Assembly: GCA_049296775.1 (NCBI GenBank)
Contig: JBAQTB010000001.1
Location: forward strand, 357,284 to 421,283
DNA: 64,000 nucleotides
From: Patescibacteria group bacterium
Lineage (GTDB): Bacteria; Patescibacteriota; Patescibacteriia; UBA9934
Reading direction: 5' to 3'
Position numbers and translations under genes: made by a program. This document shows, one piece after another, positions 21,183 to 34,122 of the stretch (the stretch's first letter is position 1; each line of letters opens with the position of its first letter). The notes beneath the pieces are model-generated. The model made no database searches, had not been told where the DNA came from, and worked only from the letters and a program-made list of their open reading frames with translations.

Positions 21183-23525
21183 ATGTCCTACGATCATAAG
21201 CGTATTGATGCTAAGTGGCAGCAGCGTTGGGATGAGGCTAAGATTTTTGAGGCCCAGGATGGCTCCAAGAAAGACAAATACTACGTGCTCGTAGAGTTTC
21301 CGTATCCGTCTGGCGCTGGTCTTCACGTTGGACACCCGCGTAGCTATACCGCTCTTGATATTGTGGCGCGGAAGAAGCGCATGGAGGGCAAGAATGTATT
21401 GTTCCCTATGGGCTGGGATGCCTTTGGTTTGCCGGCGGAGAATTACGCTATCAAGACTGGTGTACATCCAAGTGTAGTGACTCGTGAAAATATCGACAAC
21501 TTCCGCCGCCAGCTGAAGGCGATCGGTTTTAGTTTTGATTGGTCACGTGAGGTGAATACGACCGATCCCAAGTATTACCGCTGGACGCAGTGGATGTTTA
21601 ATCAATTCTTTAAGGCGGGGCTGGCCTATAAAGCAAAAGCTACAATTAACTGGTGTCCAAAAGACAAAACTGGCTTGGCGAATGAGGAAGTGGTGGGGGG
21701 AGCATGTGAACGCTGTGGCACGCCGGTTGAAAAACGTGAGAAAGAACAGTGGATGATTGCGATCACCAAATACGCCGATCGTTTACTGGAGGATCTGAAC
21801 ACGGTCGACTATTTGCCAAAAATCAAAAAGCAACAAGAAGATTGGATCGGTAAAAGCGAAGGCGCCGAGATCGATTTTTCACTGCGCCTTCCCCCCTTGG
21901 ATAAGGGGGGAGCAAGGGGGGTCGTCTCTACGACTTGCCTAACCGCCTTCACCACCCGCCCTGACACCATTTTCGGTGTGACTTACATTGTTCTTGCTCC
22001 GGAACATCCTTGGGTTAAGCTCGCGACCGATGATCAGCATGATGTTCTCGAGAATAAAGAGGAAGTAAGGGCTTATCTTGAGAGCGTAAAATCTCGCACC
22101 GAGATTGATCGTACCAATGACGACAAAGAAAAGACGGGTGTCGAGCTGAAGGGCGTGAAGGCTATCAACCCAGCTACGGGCGAAGAGATCCCGATGTGGG
22201 TGGCGGATTATGTTTTGCCTAATTATGGCACCGGTGTCGTCATGGCCGTCCCGGCGCATGATGAGCGTGATCGAGCGTTCGCTGAGAAATACGCTTTGCC
22301 GATTGTCGATGAACCGCTAGTTAGTTTTGATGAAGGTATTGAAAAATCCAAAGGTCGAAAGAAGACAAATTATCGCCTCCGTGATTGGGTATTTTCTCGT
22401 CAGCGGTATTGGGGTGAGCCGATTCCGTTAGTTCATTGTGAGAAAGACGGGTGGGTAGCTGTGCCGGACGAGCAGTTGCCAGTTGAGCTTCCGAAGGTCG
22501 AGAAGTATGAGCCCACTGACAGCGGCGAATCTCCACTTGCGAGTATCGAAAGTTTTGTAAATACGACCTGTCCAACTTGTGGTGGGCCGGCGAAGCGAGA
22601 GACGGATACGATGCCAAACTGGGCTGGGTCGAGTTGGTATTTCCTCCGCTATATTGATCCAAGCAACGATACGGAGTTCGCATCGAAGAAAGCGCTAAAG
22701 TACTGGACGCCGGTTGATCTTTACAACGGTGGGATGGAACATACGACACTCCACTTGTTGTACTCGCGTTTCTGGAACAAGTTTTTGTTCGATCAAGGCT
22801 TGGTGCCAACGAGTGAGCCTTACATGCGCCGGCACAGTCACGGTTTGATTATGTCCGAGGACGGCACGAAGATGTCTAAGTCCAAGGGGAACGTGGTGAA
22901 TCCGGATGAAGTTGTGGCTGAGTACGGAGCTGATGCTTTCCGGGCGTATATTTTGTTCATGGGGCCATTTGAAGAGCACGTGCCGTGGTCCACTAATGGT
23001 TTGGTGGGCGTGCGTAGATTCTTGGACAAGGTTGAACGCTTGGCGGATAAGTTGGGTGACGAAACGCCGGAGGTGACCAAGGCACTGCACAAAACAATTC
23101 AAAAAGTTAGCAGTGACATTGAGAGTTTCCGTTTCAATACGGCCGTGAGCGAACTCATGAAGTTTGTTAATTTGGTGCAAGAGACAAAGTCGTTGTCGGC
23201 TGAAAGCTTTAAAGTGTTTTTGACACTTTTGTCCCCATTTGCTCCACACTTAGCGAATGAGTTGTGGGAACAGTTGGGTATGACGGGGCTAGTTGAAGAA
23301 CAGTCTTGGCCAGTGGCGGATGAGAAGTTTTTGGTAGACGATAAAATTACCATCGTGGTTCAGGTGAACGGCAAGCTCCGGGCTAGTTTAGAAGTCTCGC
23401 CTGAGATTAGTGATGAAGATTTGTTGCAGTTAGCCAAGGCAGATGAGAATGTACAGAAGTTTTTGGTGGGGGAGATTAAGAAGGAGATCGTGGTGAAGGG
23501 TAAGCTGGTCAATTTCGTAGTGTAA
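21183..23525 (+). CDS. leuS: leucine--tRNA ligase
   Basis: HVGH class I motif, KMSKS (KMSKSKGN), CP1 editing region (TTRPDTIFGVTYIVLAPEHP), 780 aa. Contains the in-frame repeat copy at 21883..21924. Confidence 0.95.
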   Translation: MSYDHKRIDAKWQQRWDEAKIFEAQDGSKKDKYYVLVEFPYPSGAGLHVGHPRSYTALDIVARKKRMEGKNVLFPMGWDAFGLPAENYAIKTGVHPSVVTRENIDNFRRQLKAIGFSFDWSREVNTTDPKYYRWTQWMFNQFFKAGLAYKAKATINWCPKDKTGLANEEVVGGACERCGTPVEKREKEQWMIAITKYADRLLEDLNTVDYLPKIKKQQEDWIGKSEGAEIDFSLRLPPLDKGGARGVVSTTCLTAFTTRPDTIFGVTYIVLAPEHPWVKLATDDQHDVLENKEEVRAYLESVKSRTEIDRTNDDKEKTGVELKGVKAINPATGEEIPMWVADYVLPNYGTGVVMAVPAHDERDRAFAEKYALPIVDEPLVSFDEGIEKSKGRKKTNYRLRDWVFSRQRYWGEPIPLVHCEKDGWVAVPDEQLPVELPKVEKYEPTDSGESPLASIESFVNTTCPTCGGPAKRETDTMPNWAGSSWYFLRYIDPSNDTEFASKKALKYWTPVDLYNGGMEHTTLHLLYSRFWNKFLFDQGLVPTSEPYMRRHSHGLIMSEDGTKMSKSKGNVVNPDEVVAEYGADAFRAYILFMGPFEEHVPWSTNGLVGVRRFLDKVERLADKLGDETPEVTKALHKTIQKVSSDIESFRFNTAVSELMKFVNLVQETKSLSAESFKVFLTLLSPFAPHLANELWEQLGMTGLVEEQSWPVADEKFLVDDKITIVVQVNGKLRASLEVSPEISDEDLLQLAKADENVQKFLVGEIKKEIVVKGKLVNFVV
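21883..21924. repeat. copy A of the short palindromic C5-TTGATAA-G5 repeat (inside leuS, in-frame)
   Basis: ctgcgccttccccccttggataaggggggagcaaggggggtc. About 85% identical over ~45 nt to 26436..26484 and clearly related to 30169..30200. Confidence 0.6.
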
Positions 23526-25837: not shown

Positions 25838-26305
25838 ATGGCCGACATTCAACGCACTCTCGTTTTGATTAAGCCCGATGCCATTCAACGCGAATTGGCT
25901 GGTGAGATCGTGACCCGTTTTGAGCGCAAGGGCTTGAAGACGGTCGGTATGAAGATGACTCATTTAGATGAGGCTACTTTAACTGAGCATTACGGCCATT
26001 TGAAAGAGAAGTCTTTCTTTGGTGATCTTATGAAGTTCATGATGCAGACTCCGGTGATCGCCATGGTCCTGGAAGGTTACGACATCATTGAAGTCGTTAG
26101 AGTAATTGTAGGCGCCACTAACCCGCGTGCGGCTGATGCGGGCACCATTCGTTCTGATCTTTCCATGAACGTGCCTTCAAATATTATCCACGCTTCTGAT
26201 TCTTTGGAGTCAGCTGCGGTGGAGATTAAGCGCTTCTTTAAGGACGAAGAGCTCTTTGCTTACGATAAGCTTACAGATAAGTTCCATTTTGGAGAGGGTG
26301 TTTAA
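25838..26305 (+). CDS. ndk: nucleoside diphosphate kinase
   Basis: MADIQRTLVLIKPDAIQR...active-site His context NIIHASDS; 155 aa from ATG at 25838. Confidence 0.9.
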   Translation: MADIQRTLVLIKPDAIQRELAGEIVTRFERKGLKTVGMKMTHLDEATLTEHYGHLKEKSFFGDLMKFMMQTPVIAMVLEGYDIIEVVRVIVGATNPRAADAGTIRSDLSMNVPSNIIHASDSLESAAVEIKRFFKDEELFAYDKLTDKFHFGEGV

Positions 26306-26717
26306 GTGGTTTGGCTCCTGTAGATTATTTGGTATAGTCTATTTACCGACAACGTTTCGTGATTTGACCTAATCACATCGTGAAAGGATCCATTGGCTTG
26401 TAATCAAGCTCCTACGAATTAACGTAGGCTGGGAGCTGCGCCGATTCGCCTTCCCCCTTGATAAGGGGGAAATATAGGGGGTCGTTGCAGCAGGGGATCT
26501 GGCGGCTTAGTTATGTGCAAAGGGCCTTTAGTGGGTGCAGACTCGTTGATTGTCCGTGACATAACGCCCCAATAGGGTTTAGGGCCGGTATCACGACTCG
26601 TTGATCGGTTTTGAGACTTGAAAGTTTTTCCAAGGCCCGCTCACGCGGGCCTTTGGGTTGTTTGCATAATTTTTTAGCGTTTGATAGGTTCAATTAGCCT
26701 TTACTGGTGAGGGGGGT
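26306..26717. other. ~410-bp non-coding region rich in hairpins and short repeats upstream of the orphan ORF
   Basis: No ORF with coding character. Hairpins: gtgatt-tgacct-aatcac, gcttg-taat-caagc, cctacg-aattaa-cgtagg, ccccctt-gat-aaggggg, aaggcccgc-tcac-gcgggcctt. Repeat copy B at 26436..26484. Direct repeats gactcgttgat (26541, 26594) and gggccttt(a)g(t)gggt (26522, 26650). Confidence 0.5.
26436..26484. repeat. copy B of the C5-TTGATAA-G5 palindromic repeat (intergenic)
   Basis: ctgcgccgattcgccttcccccttgataagggggaaatatagggggtcg. Confidence 0.6.
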
Positions 26718-28022
26718 GTGATGGGTTCAATTTCGTTAGGCGTTTTCGTGCCTCAGGAGCATTTGCGAGCCCGATGTTTCGAGGAAGAACTCGAAGCGGT
26801 GCAATACATGAGCCAGAGGGTACTAAATTTGAGGGGCCTGGTGACCAACGCCCAGGCCTTTTATCAAGCCTGGATCGAAACTCATCCGAGTGATCAGGGT
26901 TTGGCCCTGTTTACGGGTGCCGACCAGTTCTACAGTTTAATGCGTGAGATGGTATTACGCTCGCAGGTGTACTTCAACTATTGGCGTGACAGTTACCTAT
27001 GGAAGGTGGAAACCTTCCTAAGGCCGCATAATGCCGCGTCCAATCCAGTCGATCCACTTCAGTTGTTGGCGCTGGTCAGGGACGGAGTTGGTAAAGTTGG
27101 AACATTAGTCCACCAACAGGTACGTTGGGAATCTACGCGTATCTTAGCCACGGCTTTTGGCTTTGCAGCGATGGAGATCGCTCACCCGGAGCACTGGATC
27201 GCGGATGAAGTTACGCGTGTGGACGCATTGTCCCGCGAGCGCTTCTATGCGCCGCGTGATCTTGTCAGCGTGCACGTAGCTTACGGGATAGACAGAGATA
27301 ACGGTGGCAGAGTACTTGGAACTCCGATTGCGAGTTTAAGTCGGACTGTTGCAGCTCGCGCCCGTGCGACGGATGCAAATCTGCCGCGTTGCCGGAACTT
27401 TAAGCATCATTTTAAATGTCGAACTGTTATCGGTGAGGACGGTACGGTTTGGCTGATGGAAAATGGTGACCGCCGCAAGGATTATATTGCCCGATTGCTT
27501 AAAAGGCATGACGGTAAGGAGGTTGGTGATTCTTGCGGTACCAGTTGCGTGCTTGTGGCCATGCAGTCACCGGCTGGTGAGCTGCGATTAGCTACACGCG
27601 AAGACGTGAGCATCGTTCGTCAGTTGGCTGAAGAGCGGTTATGGTCGGCTGATCAGCTGCGCCTGACCGAGCCTCGGCAGAACTCCACGCGTCATCGCAA
27701 CGGTGATTATTGGGATCTTAAGCTGCGGGGTCAGCTGGAGGTAAATAGGGATGGCCAGGTGGTGAAGGCGGAGGTCGAGCAGATCTTTACTTCACTCATC
27801 GACTATCTGAATCAAATTAGGGCCACGGATGGCCTTAACCACCGTATTCGTCGTGGCTATCAGCTGGCCTGTGTGCGCCCTGACCAGCCAGACGCAATAC
27901 CCCCTGCGTGGCAGTATTGGCCTGAGCAGATCTATGGGCTGGATTGGTCAGCCGCCAAAACTCAGCAGACACTTAAGCAGGCTTGGGCTAAGCGTTTTGC
28001 GGATCGCGCTAAGCGTCACTAA
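26718..28022 (+). CDS. orphan hypothetical protein, GC-elevated, with a possible HNH-like (beta-beta-alpha-metal) motif
   Basis: 434-aa ORF. ATG at 26721 is preceded by a GAGGGGGG Shine-Dalgarno. About 57% GC versus ~45% for neighbouring murA. No family recognised. Central segment PRCRNFKHHFKCRTVIGEDGTVWLMENGDRRKDYIARLLKRHDGKEVGDSCGTSC has HH-x7-G..G-x6-N-x15-H spacing with flanking Cys pairs, reminiscent of HNH nucleases (low confidence). Confidence 0.5.
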   Translation: MMGSISLGVFVPQEHLRARCFEEELEAVQYMSQRVLNLRGLVTNAQAFYQAWIETHPSDQGLALFTGADQFYSLMREMVLRSQVYFNYWRDSYLWKVETFLRPHNAASNPVDPLQLLALVRDGVGKVGTLVHQQVRWESTRILATAFGFAAMEIAHPEHWIADEVTRVDALSRERFYAPRDLVSVHVAYGIDRDNGGRVLGTPIASLSRTVAARARATDANLPRCRNFKHHFKCRTVIGEDGTVWLMENGDRRKDYIARLLKRHDGKEVGDSCGTSCVLVAMQSPAGELRLATREDVSIVRQLAEERLWSADQLRLTEPRQNSTRHRNGDYWDLKLRGQLEVNRDGQVVKAEVEQIFTSLIDYLNQIRATDGLNHRIRRGYQLACVRPDQPDAIPPAWQYWPEQIYGLDWSAAKTQQTLKQAWAKRFADRAKRH

Positions 28023-30168: not shown

Positions 30169-30200
30169 GGCCTTCCTTTCCTGATAGGGGGAGGTTAGGG
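30169..30200. repeat. copy C (degenerate) of the C5-TTGATAA-G5 repeat in the rpsL 5' UTR
   Basis: ggccttcctttcctgatagggggaggttaggg aligns with gcgccttccccccttggataaggggggagcaagggggg of copy A. Confidence 0.45.
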
Positions 30201-33750: not shown

Positions 33751-34122
33751 ATGAAGAATTCCCAATTGGATAGGTTGTTAAGGTTTGCGCAGCGGACGGG
33801 GGATCGGTTGATTATTACTGACGCTGAGGGCAAGCAGCCGGTGGTGATTCTGTCTTTAGACGATTACGAGGCACTTTTAGGCCAGTCATCTGCTGAGCAT
33901 AATGAGGCACCTAAGCAGGAAATGCGTAAACAGCCTACAAAAACTGAGGCCAGAGAGCCATTACGGGAGACTGAGGAGGAATACGTGAATATGGCGGAAA
34001 TTGAGGCGGCGGTAGAGGCTGTGAACCGGGAGGCGGCTTCTGAGCCTAAAATTGTGCCAATTACACGCAAAAATCCACCTGCAGACGCTGGTGAGGAGCA
34101 ATTCTATATGGAGCCGATCTAG
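33751..34122 (+). CDS. hypothetical protein with Phd/YefM-like N-terminal domain and acidic tail
   Basis: LDRLLRFAQRTGDRLIITDAEGKQPVVILSLDDYEALLG resembles the Phd/YefM antitoxin fold (PVxITRxGKPVAVLxSxEEYESL). The C-terminal 70 aa are Glu/Ala-rich and disordered. No adjacent toxin gene. Confidence 0.4.
   Translation: MKNSQLDRLLRFAQRTGDRLIITDAEGKQPVVILSLDDYEALLGQSSAEHNEAPKQEMRKQPTKTEAREPLRETEEEYVNMAEIEAAVEAVNREAASEPKIVPITRKNPPADAGEEQFYMEPI

Follow-up and report, generated by a model that had tools for sequence, protein, structure and literature searches.

How does a GC-rich hairpin come to lie, in frame, within the gene of an essential enzyme? The question is raised by a 64,000-nucleotide stretch of a Patescibacteria group bacterium (contig JBAQTB010000001.1, positions 357,284 to 421,283; hereafter the window), in which leuS, encoding leucyl-tRNA synthetase (LeuRS), contains a palindromic repeat that we call copy A. 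Patescibacteria have tiny genomes and few recognised mobile elements. We have found that the repeat is real, in frame and specific to the lineage of the window, that its family spreads in the coding DNA of Patescibacteria, and that the position it occupies in LeuRS is permissive. The explanation that we favour, at a probability of roughly 0.78, is that copy A is a dispersed palindromic repeat akin to the repetitive extragenic palindromes (REPs) and the Rickettsia palindromic elements (RPEs), which was acquired in this lineage, overwrote a hypervariable loop, and is translated and tolerated.

A hairpin repeat in frame within leuS

The host gene and the parts of copy A are as follows.

21183 to 23525, plus strand: leuS, leucyl-tRNA synthetase, 780 amino acids (aa), from the list of open reading frames (ORFs); host gene of copy A
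21882 to 21925, plus strand: copy A, CTGCGCC-TT-C6-TT-GGAT-AA-G6-AGCAA-G6-TCGT, delimited by sequence, alignment to copy B (below) and translation
21890 to 21911, plus strand: hairpin of copy A, a perfect 9-bp stem TCCCCCCTT/AAGGGGGGA with the loop GGAT, from hairpin scan and RNA fold
21916 to 21921, plus strand: second G-run (G6) of copy A, which duplicates the 3′ arm; its upstream pairing partner is missing here and present in copy B
21879 to 21938, plus strand: segment of 60 nt (codons S233-C252) without counterpart in the nearest relatives, from codon-by-codon comparison with the relative L001 and protein alignment

It is evident from sequence and translation that the hairpin repeat lies in frame within leuS, as a preliminary description made from the sequence alone had proposed. 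The repeat stands where that description put it except for a shift of one base, as the 42-mer assigned to 21883-21924 spans 21882-21923. Copy A reads S-LRLPPLDKGGARGV-VS, flanked by GAEIDF and FTTRPDT, and the conserved motifs on both sides are intact. In size and stem-loop form it agrees with a REP (an imperfect palindrome of 20-40 nt), copies A and B each having a perfect 9-bp stem. Since the second G-run of copy A is without its 8-nt partner, the copy has the look of a unit shortened at its 5′ end. The host protein shows the Pfam domains tRNA-synt_1, tRNA-synt_1_2 (the LeuRS editing domain) and Anticodon_1, matches the Thermus thermophilus LeuRS 1H3N with E = 5.7e-212, and is 100% identical to P0001, from a metagenome-assembled genome named "Patescibacteria group bacterium" at NCBI. 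The window has a GC content of ~48% and a strongly positive GC skew.

The closest relative, represented by the syntenic locus L001/L002 (LeuRS 88% identical by BLASTP), lacks copy A as well as the copies B and C described below, and the three copies are therefore specific to the lineage of the window. Homology between the window and L001 stops exactly at 21879 and restarts at 21939, and the 60 nt in between stand in place of a 66-nt loop (ELNFT...EKAM) in the relative. The L001 loop encodes ELNFTFKPEANQNRGPNGEKAM and is free of any C/G-run hairpin. In P0002 and P0003 (LeuRS 86-88% identical) the loop reads ELNFT(F/H)(K/T)PEAN(Q/K)NRG(P/Q)NGEKAM, and the DNA is likewise without a C/G-run hairpin. 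The inserted segment is not a protein feature that relatives encode with unrelated DNA, since P0002 and P0003 lack the segment itself. An insert of 12 aa restricted to this lineage had been suspected; its absence from relatives is borne out, but the change is not a clean addition, because 60 nt have replaced 66 nt. The window loop is longer by 12 residues than that of T. thermophilus 1H3N, and presumably by ~12 aa than that of E. coli LeuRS.

An AlphaFold2 model of the window LeuRS, built from 48 homologues (mean pLDDT 86.5), places a strand at residues 224-235, an unstructured stretch at 236-251 and a strand at 252-257 that leads into the TTRPDT editing motif. The pLDDT of block 241-250 is ~48, compared with 86.5 overall. 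The model bears out the earlier expectation of a surface loop at the CP1 entry, in that the insert is predicted to be a low-confidence beta-hairpin tip at the entry to the CP1 editing domain. Loop length ranges from 0 to ~30 residues among 120 LeuRS, and this variation and the model both indicate a surface or permissive position of the kind occupied by RPEs.

These observations are consistent with a scenario in which the repeat would have entered leuS in the host lineage after the split from the 88%-identical relatives, overwriting part of a hypervariable loop. Its Pro/Gly-rich peptide would form a floppy beta-hairpin tip at the entrance of the CP1 editing domain, tolerated because the loop accepts almost any sequence. 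Judging from the reading frame, copy A is probably translated straight through as this peptide, and it is probably neutral or close to neutral for the enzyme. Peptides spanning LRLPPLDKGGARG would demonstrate translation of the insert.

The window LeuRS has other peculiarities of length. It falls short of the 878-aa Thermus enzyme by ~100 aa, its Pfam editing-domain match ends at profile position 137 of 185, and its alignment to 1H3N skips chain residues 360-406 and ~594-621; going by these alignments, the end of CP1 and the leucine-specific insertion appear reduced. Many LeuRS of the clade (P0004, P0020, P0022, P0025 and others) have 940-980 aa with an internal NUDIX domain (PF00293), which is absent from the 780-aa window protein.

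Dispersed copies in the window and in other Patescibacteria

Two more copies, one of them degenerate, were found in the window outside leuS.

26436 to 26485, plus strand: copy B, CTGCGCC-GATTCGCC-TT-C5-TT-GAT-AA-G5-AAATATA-G5-TCGT, non-coding, 130 nt downstream of ndk and before the next ORF
26428 to 26503, plus strand: extended imperfect hairpin around copy B, from RNA fold, with G-U pairs in its outer helices
30162 to 30204, plus strand: copy C, degenerate, GTTTTCC-GG-CCTTCCTTTCC-TGATA-GGGGGAGG-TTA-GGGAAAC, in the 5′ leader of rpsL, folding with G-U pairs

Copies A and B have in common the segment CTGCGCC...GGGGGGTCGT (21882-21925 in copy A). The preliminary description spoke of near-identical non-coding copies at 26436..26484; there is indeed a copy at this place, but a single one, which is 79% identical to copy A, ungapped, over 33 nt and differs from it by two one-base indels and by the extra 8-nt GATTCGCC. 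It holds a stop codon in the leuS frame. In the RNA fold, the second G-run of copy B pairs with the upstream CGATTC via G-U pairs. Stretches of 76-81 nt fold at -32 kcal/mol around copy A and at -36.6 kcal/mol around copy B, and the minus strand of the copy B region gives -27.9 kcal/mol. Copy B is centred in ~310 nt of intergenic DNA (26306-26620) that is missing from the 88% relative L001, the spacer downstream of ndk being 412 nt in the window and 99 nt in L001. Apart from the hairpin, 26306-26620 resembles none of the fetched loci. It contains the 11-mer GACTCGTTGAT two times, near 26551 and 26606.

Copy C is like the other two in architecture only. Of the degenerate copy earlier placed at 30169..30200, the architecture and the lineage-specific insertion into the rpsL leader can be upheld, whereas its sequence similarity to copies A and B is weak. 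The insertion amounts to ~48 nt and is absent from three relatives (L001, L003 and L250). In L001 and L250, the rpsL leader following the conserved promoter runs for 3-8 nt from a conserved CCACT to the start codon; the L003 leader is longer, yet also lacks the copy C hairpin.

The resemblance of copies A and B is excluded as a product of chance by three controls. A search for CCCCYTKGATAAGGGGG with at most two mismatches gave 2 matches in the window, where 0.02 were expected; C5-N-G5-N-G5 occurs only at copies A and B (0.01 expected); and a scan for structure alone, requiring C4 in a stem of 6 bp or more, a loop of 3-7 nt and G4+ no further than 10 nt away, returned 2 matches in the window, compared with 0 in every one of 30 shuffles. 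C and G runs are of low complexity and the window has just two good copies, which could nonetheless raise the suspicion of coincidence or of an assembly artefact. We regard this as barely credible, for besides the shuffle controls, the Logan assembly of run SRR28012402 matches the window identically for 15 kb, NCBI and Logan both have P0001 on record, the leuS ORF stays open, and its flanks are conserved.

Nor are the window copies the only ones. Many copies of the same architecture, mostly in frame within conserved genes, were found in other Patescibacteria, in loci that were fetched through LeuRS homologues and searched with hairpin scans. The unit consists of a C-arm, a loop of 3-4 nt, a G-arm, a short spacer and a second G-run; the stems are perfect and of 7-10 bp, with compensatory differences between subfamilies. 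The locus L250/L126 (LeuRS P0040, 71% identical), of which L250 belongs to contig_40404 of ERZ25039499, has 7 copies within 4.6 kb: one in the leuS loop, one at a second leuS site, three in comEC, one in an MBL-fold gene and one 14 nt after ndk. When aligned to the window orthologues, the intragenic copies of L250 are insertions of 5-23 aa each, with the peptides HCAQGDQDGAHSPSFQEGATGES..., SSPSFKEGATGESVV, SLPPSRGTKGVLL, WFPLLGGIKGGLV and SSPFQGDKGGSGLNAGGRM. Two copies in leuS of L125 are identical at 44 of 45 nt and both encode IPLLSKEGLGEVA, and L003 has one copy in a DUF559 gene. In L124 (477-507) and L127 (120-147), copies lie on the minus strand in rsmB, in the same loop after the GSKTSQIAA helix that binds S-adenosylmethionine. 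This RsmB loop is a second recurrent landing site, used in two different genomes.

Window copies and L250/L126 copies have end signatures in common, 5′ (G/A)TTCGC(C)TTCCCCCT and 3′ GGGGGAGCA(A/G)(G/A)GGGGGTCGT, and hence form one family and are not alike in shape only. Among the 17 copies listed in the Patescibacteria loci (copy C counted), 14 are intragenic. The high copy number and mainly extragenic position that characterise REPs are not seen, in ~71 kb of the host genome and in these loci respectively. What is seen is the occurrence in frame in several unrelated conserved genes that characterises RPEs: leuS (two sites), comEC (three), MBL, rsmB and DUF559. Within the window leuS is the only gene with an in-frame copy, and the other host genes are those of related genomes.

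The leuS loop itself has been hit repeatedly. At the DNA level, the window, L003, L124, L125 and L126 all have the hairpin starting at one codon boundary, immediately behind the Phe in AEIDF, and at the protein level the characteristic peptide F-PLL-x-K/G-E/G-G is seen in the LeuRS P0026, with the loop PLLFKEGARG, and P0032. When 120 LeuRS are placed in a neighbour-joining tree, every bearer falls among relatives whose loops are ordinary, which implies several independent acquisitions, or transfers. The leuS hairpins of L003 and L124 are identical at 25/25 nt, including the loop and the third positions, whereas third positions of identical four-fold codons in these two genes are only 38% identical, synonymous sites being saturated. 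With such identity, the two hairpins are not an ancient stretch inherited passively. The loop at the entrance of the editing domain is also used by at least two other kinds of long palindrome. L127 has a longer in-frame palindrome here (L127:3697-3795), GTCATCCC...GGGATGAC, encoding CHPSSHIVISSAARDLIDGVPPIVGM, and L128 another (L128:3694-3765), GTCATTGCGAG...CTCGCAACGAC, also given as GTCATTGCGAGCG...CTCGCAACGAC, encoding VIASDSEAISSDGIATSTASPRND.

Repeated use of one site could be explained in another way, by short-patch homologous recombination that imported the loop from another Patescibacteria leuS, with the GAEIDF and FTTRPDT flanks serving as homology arms. Patescibacteria encode ComEC and take up DNA, and the old loop of the window was replaced, not lengthened. 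The window and L126 copies occupy the same site and share a frame, and their 22-nt tail GGGGGAGCA(A/G)(G/A)GGGGGTCGT is identical at 20 of 22 positions between genes that are just 69% identical; the 25/25 nt match of L003 and L124 at one site despite saturated synonymous sites, and the recurrence at one RsmB loop, fit as well. Such an import would however leave copies B and C and the copies at other sites (comEC, MBL, leuS) unexplained, so that a dispersing repeat is required in any case. The 5′ boundaries also disagree, the C-run being preceded in the window by an additional TCACTGCGCCTT that is absent from L126. We therefore take recombinational import of loop cassettes as a serious alternative for the same-site cases, and as a rather improbable explanation of copy A as a whole.

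The similarity of the peptides F-PLL-x-KEG-x-x-G in several LeuRS might also mean that PPLDKGG / PLLxKEG is selected as a peptide and that the palindrome is a by-product of its codons. Elsewhere, however, stretches of the same nucleotide unit are read in other frames (SPSFQEGATGES, LPPSRGTKGV, SPFQGDKGGSG), copy B is non-coding with a stop codon in the leuS frame, and identity at 25/25 nt, loop and third positions included, exceeds what selection on a peptide would keep. Selection on the peptide is thus very improbable.

Sense orientation, look-alikes and possible routes of spread

All 14 intragenic copies lie in an open frame and read in the sense direction of their gene, the two in the minus-strand rsmB genes among them. 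The probability of this orientation is ~6e-5 when copies are taken as independent, and 0.016 when counted per genome. Read by hand, a unit of the L003 type has stops in two of the three frames, and when three units are read as reverse complements, stops do not close every frame. The sense bias tracks the gene and not the direction of replication.

Several simple explanations of the bias or of the G-runs were tried and rejected. A replication-strand bias was ruled out by the minus-strand rsmB copies, which are flipped together with their gene. Removal at the RNA level, by an intron or translational bypass, is not compatible with an open frame in every intragenic copy. G-runs acting as Shine-Dalgarno sites, with the C-arm as an anti-Shine-Dalgarno mimic, were ruled out here given that most window genes have no Shine-Dalgarno sequence and that copies A and B are distant from any start codon. 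A recognisable Shine-Dalgarno sequence is missing upstream of most window ORFs (e.g. those at 2747, 21183, 28132 and 31360), and G-runs stand in its place at a few window genes (26718, 33751 and 47958).

Hairpins of similar shape are found well outside Patescibacteria. The bare pattern C5TT-N3-4-AAG5-N5-7-G5 was scanned in GTDB genomes (L004-L123 listed) and in IMG/VR (L130-L249 listed). The GTDB matches listed are mostly from cyanobacteria, with others from Nitrospirota, Planctomycetota and Thermodesulfobacteriota and one from Patescibacteria, and among the IMG/VR matches listed the pattern is present in viral contigs. Among the matches listed, the look-alikes from other phyla are mostly intergenic and show no strand bias, and the cyanobacterial units often form inverted pairs ~45 nt apart. 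The chromosome of Microcystis ichthyoblabe (L081:6483-6960) has 13 head-to-tail units of 37 nt, CACCCCCCTTATCAAGGGGGGACTAAGGGGGGATCGG, with the same hairpin motif. Flanks are typical of the lineage (...GGGGGATC, ...GGGGGTTGT, ...GGGGGATTT), and the spacers are often ATTGA, ACTAA, TTA or CTA. A metagenome scan with CGCCTTCCCCC...AAGGGGG yielded 77 loci with a GC content of 36-71%, none of which resembles copy B beyond the pattern, so that there are no close relatives among them. A HEARO RNA (RF02033, 87.9 bits) lies at L044:5484-5701 in a motif-bearing cyanobacterial locus and is probably unrelated.

Rfam 15 gave only tRNAs at gathering score over the whole window, nothing significant at 26300-26720 with E up to 10, and no family on the motif in 18 motif-bearing loci. 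A literature search by sequence string retrieved no relevant report.

A hairpin that is always transcribed in one sense might be kept for a role in cis, such as ribosome pausing at the boundary between the core and CP1, mRNA stabilisation or protein binding. Repeated acquisition at one domain boundary, perfect stems of 7-10 bp with compensatory differences between subfamilies, the uniform sense orientation that holds even in two minus-strand genes, and G-U pairs in copies B and C that fit only the transcribed strand are all in its favour. Still, the hairpin is missing from the nearest relatives and from most LeuRS of the clade, and the unit is also found in unrelated genes and in intergenic DNA. 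Rfam has no matching family, the cross-phylum look-alikes among the matches listed have no strand bias, and the z-scores of the folds are modest (-2.2 to -2.4). We consider a structure maintained for its function to be unlikely.

We thus return to a dispersed repeat that overwrote the loop in leuS, and several observations weigh against it. A neutral selfish-DNA model does not account for intragenic copies that are all strictly in sense orientation. In leuS, 60 nt took the place of 66 nt, a replacement by a segment of much the same length and no clean insertion, which simple transposition does not predict. No Y1_Tnp, RAYT or other transposase domain was found in the 41 window ORFs scanned, that is, all called ORFs except the rpsL-fusA and 36-49.6 kb blocks, which were assumed to be ribosomal, and no insertion sequence is present in the window. 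At the rpsL leader, the only site examined for it (one filled against three empty leaders), no target-site duplication is visible. Density is low, with 2 strict copies and 1 degenerate copy in ~71 kb of the 455,697-bp contig of the host (the window and a leftward extension of 7.25 kb, in which there is no additional copy). Finally, a GTAG or CGTC tag is not consistent among copies: copy A has CGTC immediately behind its second G-run (21923-21926) and copy B has CGTT there, the L250 copies end in TTC, TCGT or TTTGG, and a GTAG at 26424-26427, directly upstream of the extended hairpin of copy B, may be there by chance.

If copy A is such a dispersed repeat, its copies would arise by a copy-and-paste process acting on the hairpin. 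Our best guess is that a single-strand transposase of the HUH/RAYT type acts in trans, or that template switching or gene conversion takes place between copies, although any specific mechanism must be regarded as tentative. A broader and distinctly more doubtful possibility is that the hairpins belong to a very widespread class of tag-less C5/G5 palindromes that enters the coding DNA of Patescibacteria strand-specifically, either by transcription-coupled or RNA-mediated insertion or as loop cassettes borne by transformation. Strand-specific entry would explain the sense orientation, the independent recurrence at the LeuRS and RsmB loops, and the replacement of the old loop. Were this class real, it would continually supply the essential proteins of these reduced genomes with new surface loops.

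Comparison with known palindromic repeats

The preliminary description held that in-frame palindromic repeats are uncommon outside Rickettsia. This was overstated, as intragenic REPs of the GTAG/CGTC super-families that keep the frame and add ~10-30 aa have been described in several phyla (Di Nocera et al. 2013, PMC3733652). Their hosts include tRNA synthetase, tRNA pseudouridine synthase and tRNA-modification genes, the Rickettsia elements RPE-4 and RPE-6 are classed among the CGTC REPs, different REPs at about one site in recB of two Xanthomonas species were reported as a single case, and G-T pairs are taken to suggest the transcribed strand (PMC3733652). The Patescibacteria element resembles these REPs as a GC-rich dispersed hairpin (REPs being 20-40 nt) that is in some cases wholly within ORFs with the frame kept. 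It differs in having no consistent terminal GTAG or CGTC tag and in its duplicated 3′ arm, the second G-run. The sampled copies are mostly intragenic, whereas known REPs are mostly extragenic, and the window copies are single units and not inverted dimers. Patescibacteria are not among the phyla reported for GTAG/CGTC REPs (PMC3733652). Intragenic REPs are thus already published, and what is new here is the variant, a hairpin repeat that is tag-less and has its 3′ arm duplicated, and the phylum, which is without prior report.

RPEs, still the classic example and described here from the summary of Ogata et al. 2000 in PMC10969869, are palindromic repeats in frame in many unrelated housekeeping genes of a reduced genome. 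As far as that summary goes, the Patescibacteria element is similar in being an in-frame palindrome in unrelated conserved genes of a small genome, probably translated, at sites that the fold tolerates. It is set apart by description from RPE-1 (~100-150 bp), with its unit of 30-50 nt and another host, and also, compared with RPEs as summarised there, by the fact that the same loops were struck repeatedly in separate Patescibacteria lineages and that all intragenic copies are sense-oriented.

A G5/C5 hairpin core is also found in the REPIN/RAYT system, where the P. fluorescens GI REP is GTGGGAGGGGGCTTGCCCCC (Bertels & Rainey 2011, PMC3116915), and tnpA_REP genes of subclass 2.4 are known to contain REPs that keep the frame (Quentin et al. 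2018, PMC6006769). The inverted pairs ~45 nt apart of the cyanobacterial look-alikes (among the matches listed) are a further likeness to REPINs. Unlike REPINs, however, the element has no GT[AG]G foot adjoining its stem, a low copy number, no doublets among the window copies, and no RAYT among the window ORFs scanned. With one hairpin of 30-50 nt as its unit, it is smaller than the miniature inverted-repeat transposable elements named in a review (PMC10969869), of which the 204-bp Correia element is an example.

These results suggest that short palindromic repeats remodel the surface loops of essential Patescibacteria proteins. They would explain odd Pro/Gly-rich peptides in the proteomes of the candidate phyla radiation, and they caution that loop differences of this kind should not be read as adaptation or as a signal of phylogeny. 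The landing sites show, as a map drawn by nature, where LeuRS, RsmB and ComEC permit insertions, and sense orientation together with recurrence at the same sites offers clues, open to testing, to a mechanism of spread not so far described among REP-like repeats.

Elsewhere in the window, an ORF for a Phd/YefM-type antitoxin lies at 33751-34122, between fusA and tuf, within an otherwise conserved str operon region.

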